A DNA stretch of 64,000 nucleotides from an uncultured Pseudomonadales bacterium (GTDB lineage: Bacteria > Patescibacteriota > Microgenomatia > UBA1400 > PJMF01), in contig CAYOQI010000002.1 in NCBI GenBank assembly GCA_964406075.1, forward strand, positions 96,565-160,564, read 5' to 3'. Below the pieces are notes generated by a model that worked only from the letters and a program-made list of their open reading frames with translations, ran no database searches and was not told where the DNA came from. Below are positions 4,477 to 38,149 of the stretch, one piece after another. The first letter of the stretch is position 1, and every line of letters begins with the position of its first letter. Position numbers and translations under genes: made by a program.

Positions 4477-4561
4477 CGGAAGGGGTGGGATTTGAACCCA
4501 CGAGGCCCGTAAGAGCCGCGGTTTTCGAAACCGGTCCGATAGACCACTCCGGCACCCTTCC
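4477..4561 (-). tRNA. tRNA-Ser (anticodon CGA), class II with long variable arm
   Basis: Manual fold: GGAAGGG/CCCTTCC acceptor, anticodon loop TTCGAAA, variable arm GGCTCTTACGGGCCTC, T-arm GTGGG-TTCAAAT-CCCAC. No encoded CCA. Confidence 0.9.
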
Positions 4562-5330: not shown

Positions 5331-5414
5331 GGAGGTGTCGCCTAGTGGTCTATGGCAATCGCCTGGAAAGCGATGACCCTAAAGGTCTCGTGGGTTCGAA
5401 TCCCTCCACCTCCG
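5331..5414 (+). tRNA. tRNA-Ser (anticodon GGA), class II
   Basis: Manual fold: GGAGGTG/CACCTCC acceptor, anticodon arm ATCGC-CTGGAAA-GCGAT, long variable arm, T-loop TTCGAAT (one T-T mismatch in the T-stem). No encoded CCA. A TGGTAAGAT box lies at 5307..5315 upstream. Confidence 0.8.
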
Positions 5415-10150: not shown

Positions 10151-10222
10151 TGCACCCACCAAGAATCGAACTTGGATCAACGGTTCCGCAAACCGCTATT
10201 CTATCCATTAAACTATGGGTGC
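10151..10222 (-). tRNA. tRNA-Arg (anticodon GCG)
   Basis: Manual fold, 72 nt: GCACCCA/TGGGTGC acceptor, anticodon arm GCGGT-TTGCGGA-ACCGT, T-arm CCAAG-TTCGATT-CTTGG. No encoded CCA. Confidence 0.85.
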
Positions 10223-10280: not shown

Positions 10281-13200
10281 CTACTTTTCTGGTTTCATCC
10301 ATGTGTAATACAACACGGGGATGAAAAGTAACATGATTGTACTGGAAACTAACAATCCTGAGATAATAGCTCCACCGAGACCTCTCCACAATGGATCAGC
10401 AATAGTGATCGGAAGTAGCCCAAATATAGTACAGACTTTGGTGAGAATGATTGGTTCCAAACGACTGGCCCCTGCATCCGCAATCGAATCTTCAAAATTC
10501 ATACCTTCTTTTTGATTCAAATTAATTTTGTCTACGATAAACATTGAGTTGGTCACCACAATTCCGAATAAGGAAAGAACACCAATCATGGCTGGGAAAG
10601 ATAAGGCTGTACCAGTCAACGCAAAAGCTAAGAACACTGATGAAACTGCTAAAGGAATGACGATTAATACAATCGCAGCCTGACGGAATGAGCCAAACTG
10701 TACGACCATCGTGATCATAATGAGAACCGCAGACAACACCATGGCTTGTAAAATCGACTGAATCGATTTTGCATTTTCATCATTCACTCCTCCTGTTTTC
10801 CATTCATATCCATTTGGAAGTTCAATTGACTGGGTGAATTCTTGAAGCTTGGTATTTTCTTCTGAGATGGAAGAACCTGGACGCACTGCCGCAGTCACAG
10901 TGAGTGAACGTTGGAAATCTTCGCGAGTAATACTAGTTGGATTGACTTCTGTTTCTAATCTGCCGAGTGACATCAATGGAACGCTTTGACCTTGAGGATT
11001 TGTTACCGACAATTGAGATAATCCCTCAATATCAGCTGAACCATCATGTAAGCGCAGAACAACTTCCGTTTCCTGATCAGCATTTTCTGATAGTTTTAAT
11101 TCGTCCAATGTGAAGCCACTAGCATAGAGTCGAAGAGCAAATCCAAGAGTATCAGCACTAATCCCATTTTCCGTTAACTTGGTTGTATCTGGAATAAAGA
11201 CGACTTTACTGGTTCCTTCTTTGACCGATTTATTGACGTTCGTTAAGCCTTCTTGTTGGGATAAGAACTCTACTACCCGATCAGCTTGATGATTCAGCTC
11301 TGACAAATCTTCTCCGAGTAATCCAATTTGAATATCGGCTCCTGCTGGAGGTCCACCAGATTGTTCGATGATCGAAACTGTACCATTTGGATAATTCTCA
11401 AATTCTTTTCTGAGTTCCTCAGCAATATCATAGGAAGCGATTGATCGCTCTTCCAAATCACTCAATCGCAGAGTAAAGGTTGCCAAATTACTGCCATCTC
11501 CTCCACCACCAAATCCATCCCCAGCGCCTCTTCCAACATCAGCAGTCACATAGTGAAGTTCTGTGGTATTTCGTAATTGATTCAACACATTCATTGCTTC
11601 AGCTTGAGTACGTTCTTGAGTAGTGCCTGCTGGCAATTCAAGTTGGACAAATAATTGTTCTACATCAGTTTTAGGAAAAAATTCATTTTTGACAAAACCT
11701 AAAGGAAGCAAGGAAAAACTAAAGATGGAATAGCCGACCACAGCAATCAATACATTTCTTCGTGCTGATTTACTCTTTAAAATTCTTGCAATGAATCGTC
11801 GATAACGATCTGCAAAAGCTTCAACATCAATGACTCCATTATTAATAAGACGATTTAAAAATGAGCCTGTTCGTTTTGCTCTCGAACTTGAACGACGAGC
11901 TAGAGCTTGTTGAATAACTGCTTGAGTTCTATTTTTGAATGCTGGAAATACTCGAAGCAGAACCAAAGTAGAAATGACGTACACAAACAAAGCGATTGGG
12001 AAGATCGGACTCTTGAATGTCAAAAATCCGACTACAGCTAAGACACTTACAAACAGGACAATCTTAAAAAAGGTCGCAAGCCTCGATGGAATGACTGGTT
12101 TGAGCAACACAATCATTAAAGGTAACGTGATTAAAACAGCTATTGCAGTTGAAGAAATCATTGTCACGGTCACAACAATTGGAATCGGTTTGATAAACTC
12201 ACCAATAATTCCTGAAGTAATAAGCAAAGGAACAAAGGACCAAATAGTTGTCAACGTCGTTGACCAAATCGGAACAATCGTATCTTTCCAAACTAAAATC
12301 CCAGTCTCAAGCGGAGTAAATCGTCCAGAACGATAATAAGTTGTCATTGCTGATACCACCACAATCGTGTCATCAACGAGTAAACCTAGTGCTAAAAGAA
12401 ATGCAAACAAAGATAAGAAATTAATTGACATCCCAAAGACTTGCATCAAGAAAAAGGCTGACAAAAAGGTAAGTGGAACAGTTAAAGATGAAATTAAGGC
12501 CTGACGTAAACCCAAGAAAAGAAGCAACGTTCCCATGACCAATAAAATAGTTGTTCGGAACTCCCCAACTAAGTGAGTAAACTGCTCCACAATTTCTTCA
12601 CTGGCATTTGAGAGAGTGATGATTTCATACCCTTCTCCGTTTTCTGCCATAAATTCCTCAACTGCCACTTTGACATCTTCCCCGGCGGCATCAATATCAG
12701 TACCGACTGTTTTAAAGATAGAAAAAGTAACACCTTGGCGAGCTTCTTGATCGGGTGTTGCCACATATGATAATGCTTGTCCTGGCTTTGATCGTAACGC
12801 CACACTAGCAATGTCAGACAACGCGAGTGTTTTTCCTTGTACAGTTATTTGCAAACTGCGAATGTCATCTACTGTTTCAATCTCAGGATCTATTGTTAAT
12901 GCAAATGTATTTGCACCTGTTTCAACTGTTCCAGCTGGCAATGAGGCACGTGCTCTCTTAAGTTGTTGAGAGAGTTGGAAAGGATTGAGTCCATACTGAG
13001 CCAATTTGTTCGAATCGACTTCTACAATGACTTCTTGCACATCAAATCCAGAGGTACTCACTCGATCTATTGAACCCACATCTTCGATGTGATCTCTGAG
13101 ATCATGTACGGTATTCATGAGATCAGGGAAACTTTTTTCAGTTACTAAGGCAAATTGCCAAATTGGCTGATCTTCAAAATCAAGTGCTGTTACTGAAGGA

Positions 13201-13652
13201 TCTTGAGCGTCTTCTGGCAAATCACGTACCGAATCAACTTTTGATTGCACATCATCGCGAGCTTTATCTCGACTTACAGTTGAAAGGAACTGAAGTGTGA
13301 CAATTGAGACGTTATCTCTGGAATTAGAAGTAATGGTATCAATGTCTTTGAGTGAACGCAGTGCATCTTCAATTGGAATCGTAATCAAACTTTCTACGTC
13401 GGTAGGCCCTGCTCCGGGAAGAACTGTCACGACTGTTACGATAGGAATTTCAACTTCTGGGTTTAATCTTTTGGGCAACTGTGTATAGGCAACTGTTCCA
13501 AGTAAAGCAATTGTAATAATCAGAAGAATCACAAGTCGAATATTTTGGATAAAACGTCCAACAAGACTATCCTTCAATTTAGGATCAAAAGTTAATCGAT
13601 CCAAATAGGATTTAGACTCAGTTGGTAATTTCGTTCGTTTTTCTGCTGCCAT
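10281..13652 (-). CDS. RND-superfamily efflux transporter (AcrB/AcrD/AcrF family)
   Basis: 1123 aa with 12-TM RND topology, two large extracytoplasmic loops and the typical N-terminus FIQNIRLVILLIITIALLG. It follows an MFP gene. Confidence 0.9.
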   Translation of the reverse strand: MAAEKRTKLPTESKSYLDRLTFDPKLKDSLVGRFIQNIRLVILLIITIALLGTVAYTQLPKRLNPEVEIPIVTVVTVLPGAGPTDVESLITIPIEDALRSLKDIDTITSNSRDNVSIVTLQFLSTVSRDKARDDVQSKVDSVRDLPEDAQDPSVTALDFEDQPIWQFALVTEKSFPDLMNTVHDLRDHIEDVGSIDRVSTSGFDVQEVIVEVDSNKLAQYGLNPFQLSQQLKRARASLPAGTVETGANTFALTIDPEIETVDDIRSLQITVQGKTLALSDIASVALRSKPGQALSYVATPDQEARQGVTFSIFKTVGTDIDAAGEDVKVAVEEFMAENGEGYEIITLSNASEEIVEQFTHLVGEFRTTILLVMGTLLLFLGLRQALISSLTVPLTFLSAFFLMQVFGMSINFLSLFAFLLALGLLVDDTIVVVSAMTTYYRSGRFTPLETGILVWKDTIVPIWSTTLTTIWSFVPLLITSGIIGEFIKPIPIVVTVTMISSTAIAVLITLPLMIVLLKPVIPSRLATFFKIVLFVSVLAVVGFLTFKSPIFPIALFVYVISTLVLLRVFPAFKNRTQAVIQQALARRSSSRAKRTGSFLNRLINNGVIDVEAFADRYRRFIARILKSKSARRNVLIAVVGYSIFSFSLLPLGFVKNEFFPKTDVEQLFVQLELPAGTTQERTQAEAMNVLNQLRNTTELHYVTADVGRGAGDGFGGGGDGSNLATFTLRLSDLEERSIASYDIAEELRKEFENYPNGTVSIIEQSGGPPAGADIQIGLLGEDLSELNHQADRVVEFLSQQEGLTNVNKSVKEGTSKVVFIPDTTKLTENGISADTLGFALRLYASGFTLDELKLSENADQETEVVLRLHDGSADIEGLSQLSVTNPQGQSVPLMSLGRLETEVNPTSITREDFQRSLTVTAAVRPGSSISEENTKLQEFTQSIELPNGYEWKTGGVNDENAKSIQSILQAMVLSAVLIMITMVVQFGSFRQAAIVLIVIPLAVSSVFLAFALTGTALSFPAMIGVLSLFGIVVTNSMFIVDKINLNQKEGMNFEDSIADAGASRLEPIILTKVCTIFGLLPITIADPLWRGLGGAIISGLLVSSTIMLLFIPVLYYTWMKPEK

Positions 13653-13722
13653 AGGTTTGGTCTCTCTTCCTTTGGGGAGAGATTAAGAGAGGGGTATATG
13701 CCCTCAATTATCCTGAAAAAAT
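13653..13722 (-). repeat. Intercistronic two-hairpin element, copy A
   Basis: Transcribed strand: GAGGG-CATATAC-CCCTC TCTTAATC TCTCTC-CCCAAAGGAA-GAGAGA CCAAACCT ATG. Block ATATACCCCTCTCTTnATC and block TCTCTCCC(C)AAAGGrrGAGAGA recur at 30943..31018. Confidence 0.7.
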
Positions 13723-15174
13723 CTACTCCATCCTCACTTCTTCTCCCTCTTGGACTGATCTGGAAACAATTACACTATCGCTGGAAGTAATTCCTGAATT
13801 GACTCGCACAAATCGACCTTGCACTTCTCCCAACCCAACATCCACTGAATCAGCTAAAGTTTTTTCTCCATCTTTTTTGACAATATAGACGTAGGCTTTG
13901 TCTTGAGTTTGATACACGCTATCGAGAGGAATGAATAAATTATCATCAACCACTTTTGATGAACCTATCGAAACACTCACCGGAATTGAAGTTCCATTCG
14001 TGAGGTTTAAACCATACTGAGCAGGAATCGAGTAGAGAATACTATAGAGTGTGCCATCGGTCGCTTCAGTGGAAATGTATCGTGGATACACCATCACTCG
14101 TCGCTGACCAACTTGAAACTCACTAGGTTCACTCAGAGTAATTTGTTTTGCGGTATCTCTAGGTACAAGTACAATCGCTGTATTCTCACCAGCTTCGGCT
14201 TTAATGGTGGCAATCAAAGTTCCAGGAGCAACGGATTGTCCTACTTTTACATGGACTCGTTCCACAACTCCAGGACATGGAGATGAAGGATACATCATGC
14301 TTTCTGACACTCGTGCTAATTTATAATTCAGTTCAGAAATGTCTCGGGTTAAAACCATAGATTTTTCTTGTAGTTCTAATTGTTTAATCGTTAAATCTCG
14401 AGAAGTTCGTCCCATCTCAGCGGGCTCTTGATCTTCAGAAGTTTGATACTCAGCGGTTCGAAGTCCCGAACGAAGTTGACTGAGTGAAGCCAAAGCTCCA
14501 GCTTTACCTTGCTTGGCTCCTAAAATCGCAGCGTCATTGGATCCATTCACATTGGTGCTTTCTAAAAATTCAATTTGATCCTCTAAGGTATTAAAAATTT
14601 CTTCAGTCATGGAAATTAAAGTTCGAGTCTCGTCGAGAGATTTACGTCCAATTTCTCGAAGCTCTGCGCCTTGAGTCTCACCTTTGTTCGCCAAATCACG
14701 TTGTTTGCCAATCATGTCTTTTTGCAAATCAAAGTTATCTCGATTAAATTCAAAGCTTTTCTGTGCAATTTGTCGTGAAAGACTGGAAACATTCCCTCCA
14801 GCTGGAGTAGTAGAAAGAGAGACTACACTTTGACCTCGTCCTACTTCTTTTCCTTCAGTCACATTTATTTTCTGGACAATTCCAGCAGATTGGGCATACA
14901 CATTAATGACTCCTGACTTCTCCACTTTCGCAGTCATTGTCATTTTTGGACTTTCACCAAAGGTATATGTTTCTATTAAAGTCGGCTCAGGTGCTGGCTT
15001 TGCAGCTTCTTGAGTTGGACGTTGAATAAATTGGGACAACAAAACAAGGAGAAATAAAAGTCCAAACAATCCAAACACACTAATAAGTGGTTTATCTTGG
15101 ATAAATCGGTTCGCTCGTTGAGTTCGAGGGGTAATATATGTTTTTCTGATTCGGGTTATATCTGGAAGTTTCAT
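13723..15174 (-). CDS. Efflux RND periplasmic adaptor / membrane fusion protein (HlyD family), N-terminally anchored
   Basis: 483 aa with an N-terminal TM, a coiled-coil hairpin, and lipoyl/beta-barrel-like motifs (VEKSGVINVYAQSAGIVQKINVTEGKEV..; VERVHVKVGQSVAPGTLIATI). Confidence 0.85.
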   Translation of the reverse strand: MKLPDITRIRKTYITPRTQRANRFIQDKPLISVFGLFGLLFLLVLLSQFIQRPTQEAAKPAPEPTLIETYTFGESPKMTMTAKVEKSGVINVYAQSAGIVQKINVTEGKEVGRGQSVVSLSTTPAGGNVSSLSRQIAQKSFEFNRDNFDLQKDMIGKQRDLANKGETQGAELREIGRKSLDETRTLISMTEEIFNTLEDQIEFLESTNVNGSNDAAILGAKQGKAGALASLSQLRSGLRTAEYQTSEDQEPAEMGRTSRDLTIKQLELQEKSMVLTRDISELNYKLARVSESMMYPSSPCPGVVERVHVKVGQSVAPGTLIATIKAEAGENTAIVLVPRDTAKQITLSEPSEFQVGQRRVMVYPRYISTEATDGTLYSILYSIPAQYGLNLTNGTSIPVSVSIGSSKVVDDNLFIPLDSVYQTQDKAYVYIVKKDGEKTLADSVDVGLGEVQGRFVRVNSGITSSDSVIVSRSVQEGEEVRME

Positions 15175-18062: not shown

Positions 18063-18134
18063 TGCCCTCGGCGGGAATCGAACCCACATCTTAAATTTCG
18101 GAAACTCACATTCTATCCATTGAACTACGAGGGC
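18063..18134 (-). tRNA. tRNA-Arg (anticodon CCG)
   Basis: Manual fold, 72 nt: GCCCTCG/CGAGGGC acceptor, anticodon arm TGAGT-TTCCGAA-ATTTA, T-arm GTGGG-TTCGATT-CCCGC. No encoded CCA. Confidence 0.85.
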
Positions 18135-30465: not shown

Positions 30466-30942
30466 TTATTCCTTTAAAAATCCTGACTCTTTATGTTTTT
30501 CAATTGGTGTTCCTTGTAGGAATATCTTTTTACATTCATCGGCTAATACACCTCGCGTGATTTCAAAATGGAACTTAGGTTGTTTGAAAAAAGGTGGAAG
30601 ATGATTTTGTAAATCCAAGCAACCACTCTCATCTAAATCAATTCCTGTGACCACTTTTTTTATTTTACTTAAAACAATTGCACCAAAACACATTGGGCAT
30701 GGTTCATAAGTTGAATAGAGAATTGCTTCACCTCTATGACTTTCTAAAATATCTTTCACATCTGTAAGAGCTTTGATCTCAGCATGTGCTAGCCGGTTTT
30801 TATCTGAATATCCAGTATTATTTGCCCTCGCAATAACTTCACCATTTAGAACAATCACACATCCAATCGGCCAGTTACCTTCTTGTAAAGCTAACTCAGC
30901 TTCCTTCAATGCCTCTTGCATAAACAGTTCGTCTTTTGTCAT
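30466..30942 (-). CDS. Zinc-dependent nucleoside/nucleotide deaminase (TadA/guanine deaminase-like CDA fold)
   Basis: HAEIKAL and PCPMCFGAI motifs; 158 aa. Confidence 0.8.
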   Translation of the reverse strand: MTKDELFMQEALKEAELALQEGNWPIGCVIVLNGEVIARANNTGYSDKNRLAHAEIKALTDVKDILESHRGEAILYSTYEPCPMCFGAIVLSKIKKVVTGIDLDESGCLDLQNHLPPFFKQPKFHFEITRGVLADECKKIFLQGTPIEKHKESGFLKE

Positions 30943-31018
30943 GTCTTCCTTTTCTCTCCCCTTTGGGAGAGACCATCAAGATGATAGTCCTGATGAAGAG
31001 AGGGGTATATTTCCCTAA
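30943..31018 (-). repeat. Intercistronic two-hairpin element, copy B
   Basis: Transcribed strand: AGGG-AAATATAC-CCCT CTCTTCATC [19-nt extra CATCA..TGATG hairpin] TCTCTCCC-AAAG-GGGAGAGA AAAGGAAGAC ATG. It starts directly after the stop of 31019..32467. Confidence 0.7.
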
Positions 31019-32467
31019 CTAATTTTGCTTTTTAAATTGATACACTCTCATATTTTCACCACACAAAATTGTATCTTGAAGTTCTTTTTCACCAAATAAT
31101 GTTAGCTCATGATAAGCAGTAGTGGCTGGATCAAAATCAGCTTTATCGGCCACCACCAGCATCTTATCACTCATGCCAGGATTTGTTGAAATATCTCGAG
31201 TGAAACATCCATGTTTATTAAAAAAGAAACTGTAGTCATATCCCGAATGAAAATCATGCCAAGCCTGTGCTGACAGATACATTGGTTCTGTATATTGTGC
31301 GCAGACTTTTTCAGCACAAGTTTCCAAATCAGAGATAGTTCGATGTGGCGCACGAGTAAACTCAGTGGTGATAATTCCACTCCAATAAAATAGTAATACC
31401 ATTGCAATCAACACTTTCCATATTTCGGGTAGGTTCATAACAATAAAAAGAAACAGTACGATAAACCCTAAAACATAATGGGAATGAAATTCATCAATAA
31501 ATAATGTTGATGAAATATAGCTACATACAAAAATAAATATAAGTTTCAGTACATTTTTCTTTCTTTTTTCTGGCAGTTGAAATATTCCTACAACTAATAG
31601 AATTAAAATAATAAATACAGCTCGCATACTGACTGTACGAACTTCTTTAAACCCCACTAACTGCACAAGTCCACTATCAATCAGAGATAAAAACGGTACG
31701 GTTTGATTTGATCTTTCGAATTGTAAAACTTGTTTTGTTAATAAAAAGTCATAACGAAGCTCAAACAGAATATGTGGCAGAAAAACGATCAGAAATGAAC
31801 CTACAAGCGATGAAAGGAAGAAAAGTCTTTTTTCTTTTGGAAGGGAAAATAAAAACATCAGAATGACGAAAAAAAGTATTGGGATTACCGCATAGGTCAT
31901 CCCAACTGCAAAGCTAAAACAGAGTGCTGAAAGTACAATGAACTTTTTTGATATGTCACCTTCATCTAATAATTTCCAAAATATTCCAATTCCTACAATC
32001 AAAAAGGGTACCGCAAACGCCGGATTCCAAGTTGATCGTTGTTGTTCTAATACAAATGGATGAAACAAATACAAAAGACTGAAGAAAATGAATGGGACAA
32101 GCTTAGTAAAAACTTTTTGTGAAGATTGATCGTTTTTAATTTGCCGAAATAAAATGAATGACGCAATAATATTTAAACCAATACCAGTGAATGCTGTGGT
32201 CAATGGTGAATATGAAGTGAGAATAAATACTGGAAGATTGAGGTAAAAATACCAGGCCGATTGATTAAAGGGTAACTGACTATTTCCCGGACCAAGCAAA
32301 GTAGGCTTTCGCTCTTGCACCATCTCCATCAGCATCTCGTGATCACGACCAATATCTCCCCAAAAATACAATGTTTCGGGTAAACGATACAGTCGTAAAA
32401 AGATAAAACTGAATATAGTTATTCCAAATATCCAAAATGAAGATTGTCTGAGGATTTTTTTTTCCAT
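31019..32467 (-). CDS. Polytopic GT-C-like (ArnT/PMT-like) membrane protein
   Basis: 482 aa with more than 10 TM. First-loop motif GDIGRDHEMLMEM...LGP...YFYLNLP is shared with the paralog at 46999..48429. Confidence 0.5.
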   Translation of the reverse strand: MEKKILRQSSFWIFGITIFSFIFLRLYRLPETLYFWGDIGRDHEMLMEMVQERKPTLLGPGNSQLPFNQSAWYFYLNLPVFILTSYSPLTTAFTGIGLNIIASFILFRQIKNDQSSQKVFTKLVPFIFFSLLYLFHPFVLEQQRSTWNPAFAVPFLIVGIGIFWKLLDEGDISKKFIVLSALCFSFAVGMTYAVIPILFFVILMFLFSLPKEKRLFFLSSLVGSFLIVFLPHILFELRYDFLLTKQVLQFERSNQTVPFLSLIDSGLVQLVGFKEVRTVSMRAVFIILILLVVGIFQLPEKRKKNVLKLIFIFVCSYISSTLFIDEFHSHYVLGFIVLFLFIVMNLPEIWKVLIAMVLLFYWSGIITTEFTRAPHRTISDLETCAEKVCAQYTEPMYLSAQAWHDFHSGYDYSFFFNKHGCFTRDISTNPGMSDKMLVVADKADFDPATTAYHELTLFGEKELQDTILCGENMRVYQFKKQN

Positions 32468-36277: not shown

Positions 36278-38149
36278 ATGTTTAGAATGAAAAAACAATC
36301 AAACAACACCCTTCTCTTCATAATTAGCGCTTTTACCTTTCTTTCAATTTCCTCTTTTTTCATTTACTCAAACTTGAAACATTTTATTGTGAATGCGCAA
36401 ACTGGGCCACGATTAGCGATCATGAGTGATAGTACTTCGGATGAATACAGAGCAAATGATAATAGAGCCGGCGGAACGCAATACGCAGCCACGACCCTCT
36501 CTTGGGGTGAATTACTGGTCAATGAGAGGAATTTCTCACTGGGTTCATGGGGAACAAGAACTGAACCACGCCGAACTGGCTATGAGTACAACTGGGCAAG
36601 AAGTGGAGCAACTGCTCGCAGTGTCATCACAACGAACGCTCACACCGGCATCGCAGGACAAATACAAACAGGATTAATTGATGTCGTATATTTCCAGATT
36701 GGGAATAATGACTTTGCATATTACAACGAAGGCCATAACATCTATCACGGTACTATTGCCGGACAAGCACTTCAAACAAAAATCGATAATGTGATCGCTG
36801 ATATTACTTTAGCACTCGATACGGTACTCGTTGCCAATGGTGAAACCAAAGTTGTTCTCGGAACAATTCCCGACATGGGGAATGCAGCCCATTGGAGAGC
36901 ACTCTATCCTGATCCCGTAAAACGTCAGCGCGTTACAGATGCAGTCACACAAGTGAATACTGCAATTATGGGCTTGGCTAATTCTAGAGAAAATGTCGTA
37001 CTATTTGACATGGATGCATTTGGACTCTCTCTTCTATCGAGACTGGATGCCCAAGGCAACCTCGTTGTCGGTGGCGAACTAATTTCCATGGTGGTAAATG
37101 GGCATGAACCACATCATGGAATTCTTGGCGATAATATCCATGGTGGTACAGTTATTAATGGCTTAATAGCTAACGAAGTAATTCTCAAAATAAATCAAGC
37201 ATTAGGAACCACAGTACCAATTTTCAGTGATCAAGAGCTATTAACTAATTCAGGTATCATTGTTCCCACTTCTACACCAACTCCTACACCAACAAGAACA
37301 CCTACACCTATTCCTTCTCCAACAAATACACCGGACCCCACTCCTACATTAACTCCAACACCAACCCCTGGTATTGGCGGTGAACCTACACCCACTCCTT
37401 CAGAAATTCCTACTCCTACTCCGACATTAACCCCATCACCATCACCGACGAATACTCCAAGCCCATCTCCTACTAATACACCTACACCGACTCCATCACC
37501 AACTCCAAGTCCTACACCGAGCCCAACGCCTTCACCAACTAATACCCCAACTCCAACACCTTCAAACACGCCAGTACCTACTCCAACTCACACACCGGTT
37601 CCAACTCCGACTTCAACACCATTGCCAACCAATACACCCACTCCAGCACCTACGAGCACTCCAACACCAGTTCCAACTAGTACACCTGCTCCTGCTGTGA
37701 CATCCCACACACCTATGGCCTACCAGATTTCTGGTGGATCATACATTTCAGGAGCTTTTTCATCCCTGTTTACAAATGATAATGTCTACTTAAGAACTCG
37801 AAGTACAAGAGCTGGATCTCCCAGAGTAGCTCAGACAGAGTTTGGATTTAATACTTTAGGAGATAGAAATACAATTACCCAAATGACAATTAATGTCATT
37901 GTAAAATCTAGTGCATCGTCCACAAGTACACGTCTATATTTGTATAACTTTGTCTCAAATGTTTGGGAGCAAAAAGATTCCTATACTATAGGTACGGCTG
38001 AAGTCAGTAGAGCAATAACTTTAAGTGGAAATTCAAATATTAGTAAATATGTCGATCCAAATGGTCAATTTGGTATTCGGGTAAGTACCAGTCGTTCATC
38101 GAATTATGAAATGTATCATGAGCTAGCCACAGTTCAGATCACTCGATAA
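36278..38149 (+). CDS. Secreted SGNH/GDSL-family hydrolase with Pro/Thr-rich linker and uncharacterised C-terminal beta domain
   Basis: N-terminal TM/signal, SGNH-like blocks ([29 protein letters not shown]), about 145 aa of PT repeats, then a C-terminal domain of about 150 aa. Start could be ATG 36287. Confidence 0.7.
37265..37700 (+). repeat. Coding low-complexity Pro/Thr ([10 protein letters not shown]...) tandem repeat region
   Basis: Degenerate ACN-CCN repeats inside the SGNH gene. The GV-rich antisense ORF 37231..37569 mirrors it. Confidence 0.9.

Follow-up and report, generated by a model that had tools for sequence, protein, structure and literature searches.

The window analysed here, a stretch of 64 kb in all, carries two copies of a short element, each of them located in the spacer between two genes of an operon. 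Copy A lies in the 70-nt intercistronic spacer at 13653..13722 on the minus strand (TAG-ATTTTTTCAGGATAATTGAGGGCATATACCCCTCTCTTAATCTCTCCCCAAAGGAAGAGAGACCAAACCT-ATG), which adjoins the stop codon of a membrane-fusion protein gene (MFP, 13723-15174, minus strand) and the ATG of an AcrB-type RND gene (10281-13652, minus strand). Copy B lies in a 76-nt spacer at 30943..31018, also on the minus strand (TAG-TTAGGGAAATATACCCCTCTCTTCATCAGGACTATCATCTTGATGGTCTCTCCCAAAGGGGAGAGAAAAGGAAGAC-ATG), with a 482-aa membrane-type gene that has no Pfam match upstream (31019-32467, minus strand) and a cytidine/dCMP-type deaminase gene downstream (30466-30942, minus strand). The elements themselves cover positions 13661-13705 and 30953-31012, that is about 45-65 nt, and for both copies the minus strand is the transcribed strand. 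Both copies are sense-oriented in their operons and their 3′ ends are found 8-10 nt before the ATG, an arrangement that a cis-regulatory reading also predicts. The homologues of the window proteins carry names such as Woesebacteria and Shapirobacteria, which points to a host of the Microgenomates type from the candidate phyla radiation.

A first-pass annotation of this DNA had proposed that the two spacers share a repeated element, and our counts confirm that the repeat is genuine, with both copies at these places and in this orientation. Block 1 (ATATACCCCTCTCTTMATC) has two matches in the 64-kb window vs 0.03 expected, block 2 (TCTCTCCCAAAGGGGAGAGA, up to 3 mismatches) has two matches vs 0.00 expected, and for either block two copies were reached in 0 of 100 shuffles. 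According to the block scans and a profile search, copies A and B are the only copies in the 64 kb. The near-identity of block 1 holds, but amounts to 18/19 positions and not to 18/20 as first given; the sequence string of the element was likewise described in the right way but with two bases too many, TCTCTC overlapping the last TC of 'TCTTAATC'. Also the two recurring blocks had been recognized correctly, but the description lacked the 24-nt hairpin insert between the blocks of copy B. As had been observed, the element is GC-richer than its surroundings (41% and 45% in the two spacers and 50% in the core of copy A, compared to 37% in the window). The proteins flanking copy A and those flanking copy B are unrelated, and thus the copies do not stem from a segmental duplication. 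Paralogy of the upstream genes of 483 and 482 aa was considered and rejected, as the proteins are unrelated.

The unit is made up of a pyrimidine (Y) arm, followed by its Watson-Crick purine (R) partner and by a third block which repeats R in reverse order. The plus-strand unit is TCTCTCCCC-TTT-GGGGAGAGA-TTA-AGAGAGGGG and the unit on the transcribed minus strand CCCCTCTCT-TAA-TCTCTCCCC-AAA-GGGGAGAGA. In copy A the third-strand block lies at 13686..13694, with CCCCTCTCT on the minus and AGAGAGGGG on the plus strand, and mirrors the Y block at all 9 nt. The loop from the third strand to the hairpin at 13683..13685 (TAA minus, TTA plus) is identical to the loop of the E. coli repeat TMECO type A, which is discussed below. 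One hairpin arm, at 13674..13682, is TCTCTCCCC on the minus strand and corresponds on the plus strand to the intact R block, GGGGAGAGA; the second, SD-like arm is located at 13661..13670 (GGAAGAGAGA minus, TCTCTCTTCC plus). Taken together, the plus strand of copy A reads TCTCTCTTC-CTTT-GGGGAGAGA-TTA-AGAGAGGGG. In copy B the third-strand block at 30997..31005 (CCCCTCTCT on the minus strand) is followed by a 24-nt insert in the linking loop at 30973..30996 that contains a hairpin of its own (CATCA...TGATG region) and then by the main hairpin at 30953..30972 (TCTCTCCC-AAAG-GGGAGAGA). All these features are given for the minus strand, and in both copies CCCCTCTCT is the exact mirror of the pyrimidine (left) arm of the TCTCTCCC(C)/GGGGAGAGA hairpin.

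The first-pass annotation had described the element as consisting of two hairpins. The second hairpin is real, with 8 perfect pairs in copy B and, when TCTCTCTTCC is paired with R on the plus strand of copy A, 7 Watson-Crick pairs and two G.T wobbles. The two-hairpin anatomy as such does not hold. The 5′ arm of hairpin 1, GAGGG at 13701..13705 on the minus strand, pairs with CCCTC at 13689-13693 inside the third-strand block, so that this hairpin borrows part of the third block; it is down to 4 bp in copy B, is not seen in the relatives and is not a feature of the family. What is conserved instead is the mirror third block.

When the third block is read against the R block, the plus strand of copy A yields 9/9 triads with a 3-nt loop, and copy B yields 8/8 perfect triads, being the sole motif of such quality in the window; dinucleotide shuffles contained on average 0.65 motifs even when as few as 6 triads were required. 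Both copies have the Y block, the Watson-Crick R partner and the Hoogsteen or reverse-Hoogsteen third block by which the intrastrand triplex class is defined. Motifs of this class were described by Holder et al. 2015, and the best studied example is the E. coli repeat known as BoxC, PIT or TMECO (PMC4666352), for which these authors cite Hoyne/Maher 2000 (PMC4666352). The class was thus already in the literature (PMC4666352), although the element had at first not been recognized as a known motif. In terms of the ITxF classes, the transcribed strand places the element in class IV (Hoogsteen-Y-R), and the opposite strand places it in class II (Y-R-reverse Hoogsteen). The numeric ITxF thresholds, namely stems of 6-15 nt with at most one mismatch and both loops of 1-6 nt, are passed by neither window copy. 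In copy A a stem of 9 nt includes two positions that are not canonical (G.T or C.A), and a stem restricted to its perfect 6 nt leaves a loop of 10 nt; copy B has a 24-nt loop.

The TMECO pattern is CCCTCNCCC N3-6 GGGNGAGGG N3 GGGNGAGGG and occurs 23 times in E. coli K-12. All copies are intergenic, they show no preference for one orientation and frequently form inverted pairs of two types; close relatives, Salmonella among them, lack the repeat (PMC4666352). The repeat forms a stable triplex in vitro as single-stranded DNA, and TMECO is the only case in which this fold has been demonstrated; in vivo footprinting gave no stable triplex. It has no promoter or terminator activity and is tied to local genome variability and small deletions (PMC4666352). 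Intrastrand triplex motifs in general were also counted in large numbers in cyanobacteria and other bacteria (PMC4666352). The most frequent unit in E. coli, with which copy A is compared below, is CCCTCGCCCC-TTT-GGGGAGAGGG-TTA-GGGTGAGGGG (PMC4666352, Table 1).

The plus strand of copy A shares with TMECO type A the loops TTT and TTA, the R core GGGGAGAG and about 26/36 positions, and the score of this alignment was reached by 0 of 2000 shuffles. At the level of the family the likeness extends to the whole unit of about 36 nt (Y-loop-R-loop-third strand), which is strictly intergenic and multi-copy, shows no orientation bias, occurs in inverted pairs, is patchily present, undergoes small deletions and has T opposite A in the third block. 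Nevertheless, there are clear differences. The arms are of the (CT)n type (TCTCTCCCC / AGAGAGGGG) and not CCCTCNCCC / GGGNGAGGG, and therefore the published TMECO pattern is not matched; when applied strictly to the plus strand of copy A (TCTCTCTTCC-TTT-GGGGAGAGA-TTA-AGAGAGGGG) it fails in the Y block, at the R end and in the third block. Moreover, the host belongs to the candidate phyla radiation, with a low GC content, and not to the proteobacteria, the linking loop of copy B holds a 24-nt hairpin, and the window copies are situated within operons right before start codons. The canonical metagenome relatives of the element (see below) pass ITxF with 9/9 triads and loops of 5 and 3 nt. As the window element itself fails both the TMECO pattern and the ITxF thresholds and these relatives pass the latter, we regard it as a sequence variant of the class and not as BoxC itself.

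A scan of metagenomes yielded 39 loci. On low-GC contigs, for example from 0.2-um groundwater filtrates, the unit reads ATACCCCTCTCTT-TA-TCTCTCCCC-TAAAA-GGGGAGAGA and is almost identical to copy A. This groundwater unit is usually the right half of a composite of about 115 nt in which two diverged units are inverted to each other, AATCGTTCCTCCCCC-ATTTA-GGGGGAGGG-CA-GGGTGGGGGTAT-(about 18 nt)-ATACCCCTCTCTT-TA-TCTCTCCCC-TAAAA-GGGGAGAGA-GCGATT. An nhmmer profile built from six composites detects copy A with an E-value of 1.9e-7, copy B with an E-value of 1.9e-3 and nothing else in the window, in both cases with the right half only. On a contig assigned by binning to Dehalococcoidia (L004), the same profile detects a complete composite with an E-value of 1e-10. 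The left unit of this composite is one position short of the E. coli TMECO pattern. Searching E. coli genomes with the composite by blastn gave no match, the query being short and of low complexity.

The likeness of the two copies might also be a chance match of low-complexity polypyrimidine/polypurine sequence. The blocks are indeed of low complexity, and most matches of two public pattern scans are due to chance: the scan of genome contigs yielded 25 matches vs about 34 expected by our own estimate, with related loci only in the Dehalococcoidia contig and two others (L010, L015). For the window copies, however, this explanation is refuted by the shuffles given above, by the profile E-value of copy A and by the block order, the spacing and the flanking ATA/ATC, all of which the window copies have in common with many metagenome copies.

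The relationship of the third block to the hairpin was also followed in viral contigs, from which 130 TCTCTCCC-loop-GGGAGAGA hairpins were fetched irrespective of their flanks. In 30 of these hairpins a mirror block is present on the triplex-competent side, compared to 4 in the swapped control (Fisher p 3e-6). CCCTCTC is found within 50 nt upstream in 16 cases and GAGAGGG within 50 nt downstream in 14 cases, the swapped counts being 1 and 3. For those viral loci that are rich in GC, the ORF context contained too much noise to be of use.

A check for covariation had been suggested in the first-pass annotation, and the three blocks do co-vary. Among the metagenome units, 17 reach 9/9 triads with loops of 2-3 nt, and they fall into four sequence types: type 1 with Y TCTCTCCCC, R GGGGAGAGA and third block AGAGAGGGG; type 2 with TCCTCCCCC, GGGGGAGGG and GGGTGGGGG; type 3 with TCCTTCCCC, GGGGAAGGA and AGGATGGGG; and type 4 with CCCCTCCTT, AAGGAGGGG and GGGGTGGTT, in the same order. 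On the wrong side of these hairpins the best match is 4-8/9 even with 30 offsets allowed. Given four types at 9/9 and a wrong side at 4-8/9, all three blocks change together. In addition, 18.5% of the variant hairpins match their own mirror at 7/8 or better, whereas 4.9% match the mirror of another unit. The four co-varying types show that conservation concerns the symmetry of the three blocks as such.

The third blocks also give a hint in which nucleic acid this symmetry matters. In three of the four unit types a T stands opposite A. Such a T is allowed in the purine (reverse-Hoogsteen) motif and not in the pyrimidine motif, and the purine motif forms in DNA and not in RNA (PMC4666352). As these third blocks fit the purine (DNA) motif only, we infer that the constraint on the three blocks acts on single-stranded DNA.

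These findings have to be weighed against a cis-acting mRNA element. According to this reading the hairpin sequesters SD-like purines and tunes the translation of the downstream gene, or it stabilizes the upstream cistron as REP hairpins do, perhaps with a pH-sensitive RNA triple helix that involves the upstream CCCCUCUCU (U.A-U and C+.G-C triads). The sense orientation of both window copies shortly before an ATG agrees with such a role, as do the fold of the copy B sense RNA, which is better than that of shuffles (z -2.7), the ability of pyrimidine-type intrastrand triplexes to form in RNA (PMC4666352) and the position of the composite in the polA 5′ leader at three metagenome loci (L162, L165, L185). 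On the contrary, the sense RNA of copy A folds no better than shuffles (z -0.6), and on this strand the two wobble positions become C.A mismatches in the hairpin stem. Copy B has an SD-like AAGGAAG of its own between the element and the ATG, outside the hairpin. In copy A no SD-like sequence is present other than the purine arm GGAAGAGAGA, the end of which lies 8 nt from the RND ATG. The proposed sequestration of the SD is not supported. Furthermore, the T-for-A variants of the third block misfit the motif that RNA is capable of, and by established triplex chemistry a run of four C+ triads is not favoured at neutral pH. Promoter-like or terminator-like sites were not found on the sense strand of either element, and a promoter or terminator role was rejected on this ground.

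The comparison with related genomes also bears on this question. In four relatives with an MFP identity of 55-60% (L191, L193, L194, L195) the MFP-RND spacers are 8, 5, 12, and 5 nt long, and the element is absent at all four junctions. In view of these tight and element-free junctions, copy A is a lineage-specific insertion of about 60 nt. There was no family match in 140 kb from eight related Microgenomates loci, and with the relatives of the 482-aa protein (46-50% identity) neither synteny nor the element was found. Single units between co-directional genes occur in both orientations: the order on the transcript is third strand-Y-R in the window copies and at one further locus (L170), and Y-R-third strand at two other loci (twice in L189, once in L156). 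Hence neither the conservation at orthologous spacers by which the first-pass annotation wished to judge the element, here those between MFP and RND, nor a fixed orientation, both hallmarks of gene-specific cis-regulation, is observed, and the idea of a dedicated regulator of the pump is not supported. The mixed orientation, the missing orthologous elements and the lack of a promoter or terminator argue against a function that is specific for a gene or an mRNA strand, although incidental effects on expression may occur. Taken together, we consider a cis-acting mRNA element unlikely.

An inserted element could also be a MITE or a REP-type element that is moved by a transposase, be it a RAYT, an IS200/IS605-like or another enzyme, and the triplex symmetry would then be incidental to the recognition of the ends. 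The full composites of about 115 nt consist of two inverted units and have inverted ends (AATCG...CGATT), copy A is an insertion relative to the orthologous junctions, and several copies per contig are found at two loci (L189, L156). The former of these is a contig of 2.3 kb encoding hrcA, grpE, DUF559 and DUF6998 (Pfam) which carries units in every intergenic spacer. Related units are also present in phage contigs, at times in tandem (L136). The window copies, however, are without such inverted ends, and a mirror symmetry that co-varies over four types is not predicted by the recognition of inverted repeats. Furthermore, BoxC is reportedly not linked to mobile elements (PMC4666352). With REP and BIME elements the window element has in common that these are short palindromic repeats in intergenic or intra-operon spacers which are co-transcribed with the flanking genes and are able to form mosaics. 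Among the three roles first offered, a REP-like intergenic repeat comes closest. The window element nevertheless lacks the GTAG-type 5′ tetranucleotide, and REPs in turn lack the mirror-repeat third block. A transposase-moved element therefore appears decidedly unlikely to us.

The alternative that we favour, with a probability of roughly 0.7, is that each spacer holds one unit of a BoxC-like dispersed intergenic repeat of the intrastrand triplex (PIT/BoxC/TMECO) class, the purine end of which happens to give an SD-like sequence. As parts of this same reading, the two spacers would be true copies of a small dispersed DNA repeat and not a dedicated efflux-pump control element, and any effect on the expression of the pump would be a side effect and not the reason for the presence of the element. 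When the DNA becomes single-stranded during replication, repair or transcription, the hairpin would take the third block into its major groove. The predicted fold of the plus strand would be held by G.G-C and A/T.A-T triads (purine motif) and that of the minus strand by C+.G-C and T.A-T triads (pyrimidine motif). The units would spread or persist as DNA-level repeats and decay by small deletions.

At the RND gene, as the comparison with the relatives shows, copy A was inserted into a junction that is tight elsewhere, and its SD-like 3′ block would replace the displaced ribosome-binding site. As either orientation leaves a purine-rich 3′ block on the transcript, insertions before start codons are probably tolerated. 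The mRNA hairpin of copy A, which would otherwise bury the SD-like block, would be weakened by two G-to-A changes in the sense strand.

Another idea was that copies A and B arose from the 115-nt composite by deletion. The apparent deletion junctions, GAGGGCA/TATACCCC and TTAGGG/AAATATACCCC, fit this idea, but the similarity of the left remnants is not significant, as the observed score was reached in 42-92 of 500 shuffles for copy A and in about 18 of 500 for copy B, and such a derivation is at most a weak candidate. The GAGGG at 13701..13705 may at most be a remnant of a lost left-half unit, with the same limit on its similarity.

To our knowledge no function is accepted for the BoxC/PIT/TMECO repeats, which have been characterized mainly in E. 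coli. A close sequence relative in a streamlined genome of the candidate phyla radiation as well as in groundwater and phage contigs widens the range of this class. It also sharpens the question as to why a nearly identical 36-nt module with the same loops is found in distant phyla, be it by horizontal spread, by convergence on a stable fold or by a shared cellular target. Judged by the sequences, the likeness across phyla could be a convergence of low-complexity sequence rather than homology. A much bolder alternative is that a BoxC-type three-block module was kept as a functional structure from E. coli to the bacteria of the candidate phyla radiation and the phages, in a superfamily that includes the Rfam family whalefall-1, and that next to the start codon the sense RNA forms a pyrimidine-motif triple helix of C+.G-C and U.A-U triads, which acts as a proton-sensitive switch on the translation of the RND pump and the deaminase. 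We regard this as very improbable. For annotation practice it follows that spacers of this kind should not be taken as pump-specific regulators.

Whalefall-1 (RF01762) deserves a closer look in its own right. It is listed as a non-coding RNA, and whale-fall metagenomes are its only known source (Weinberg et al. 2010, PMC2864571). Its CU-rich hairpin UCUCUCC/GGAGAGA, its second hairpin and its GGuGAGG tail correspond to the plus-strand layout of copy B. This raises the possibility that the plus strand encodes, in antisense to the operons, a small non-coding RNA related to whalefall-1. Copy B scores 15.8 bits on the plus strand (E 0.04 on 86 nt), other family units reach 18-25 bits, and copy A, with 10.7 bits, folds better on the plus strand (z -1.9) than on the sense strand. 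Yet all these scores, which range from 10.7 to 24.6 bits, are far below the gathering threshold of 37 bits. Copy A is moreover devoid of promoter-like or terminator-like sites on the plus strand, and copy B has a single weak terminator-like site of 5 pairs. Should whalefall-1 itself be a DNA motif of the BoxC type, this would account for the resemblance just as well. An antisense RNA gene appears extremely improbable. At the gathering score of any Rfam family the window yields four tRNAs only, and 14 viral loci with related elements yield none; sub-threshold matches to Rfam miRNA, snoRNA and CRISPR-repeat families were discarded as noise. The consensus of whalefall-1 resembles a BoxC-type motif whose loop contains a hairpin, and it may be necessary to re-evaluate this family as a motif at the level of DNA. 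In one family from phage contigs a G+C-rich hairpin is located between the third block and the main hairpin, which is the layout of copy B.

The Rfam family whalefall-1 (RF01762), which is filed as a non-coding RNA, has a consensus in which a UCUCUCC/GGAGAGA hairpin is followed by another hairpin and then by the tail GGuGAGG. Six of the seven tail positions are compatible with reverse-Hoogsteen pairing to the purine arm. Judged from its consensus, whalefall-1 is possibly not a non-coding RNA but a DNA repeat of the BoxC (intrastrand triplex) type. Sub-threshold matches to the family are found in L073 (1718-1763), in the viral contig L081 (2615-2656) and in L189 (1028-1102), a groundwater contig of 2.3 kb.

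In L189 triplex-motif units, each made up of a pyrimidine arm, its purine partner and a third block mirroring the latter, are present in all intergenic spacers of hrcA-grpE-DUF559-DUF6998 (420-1682). Every spacer has at least one unit, several sequence types occur across this unusually dense cluster, and the units are without exception antisense to the genes.

The version in the viral contigs L081 (2672-2736), L091 (2019-2083), L094 (1561-1625) and L125 (592-656) is conserved as CCCCTCTCAAC-[GC hairpin]-TA-TCTCTCCCC-TGAA-GGGGAGAGA, and 20-50 nt downstream a gene beginning MNWFGRKA follows. The same phage element is found in other contexts in L100, L103, L117 and L131. The arrangement CCCCCTCTCTCC-AACC-TCTCTCCC-GCAAG-GGGAGAGAGG is repeated three times in tandem with a 50-nt period in L136 (272-406), and L141 carries two copies of it dispersed over two sites; in these copies a CC/GG extension lengthens the hairpin and the third block together.

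The 115-nt composite, a pair of diverged units in inverted orientation, occupies one common site in the related contigs L162, L165 and L185. It is followed by the start of the DNA polymerase I gene, and about 100 nt upstream of the composite lie a terminator-like hairpin and a promoter-like site (TTGCTC-N17-TAAAAT). As the composite is placed between the promoter-like site and the gene start, it is located within the polA leader. The left unit of the composite is found in L158 (1505-1540), L162 (648-683), L164 (417-452) and L169, and its purine half, GGGGGAGGGCAGGGTGGGGG, has four G-runs in all of them. By its sequence, this half could alternatively fold into a G-quadruplex, an alternative which has also been raised for the E. 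coli BoxC/PIT motif TMECO (Holder et al., PMC4666352).

Two further groups of metagenome contigs (L155, L161, L174, L181, L182, L186 and L188; L152, L172, L173, L180 and L184) match the scan pattern in a context that is conserved yet different, for example, ATACCCCTCTCTTATTTGGCGCCCTCTCTCCCTAT. Both are unrelated conserved loci distinct from the window element; these contigs lack the purine arm.

The window also contains a long imperfect periodic repeat (37261-37701; 6/12-nt period, ACnCCn units), which presumably encodes a Pro/Thr-rich linker, and four tRNA genes at 4477-4561 (minus strand), 5331-5414 (plus), 10151-10222 (minus) and 18063-18134 (minus), one of which follows the RND gene at a distance of 59 nt.
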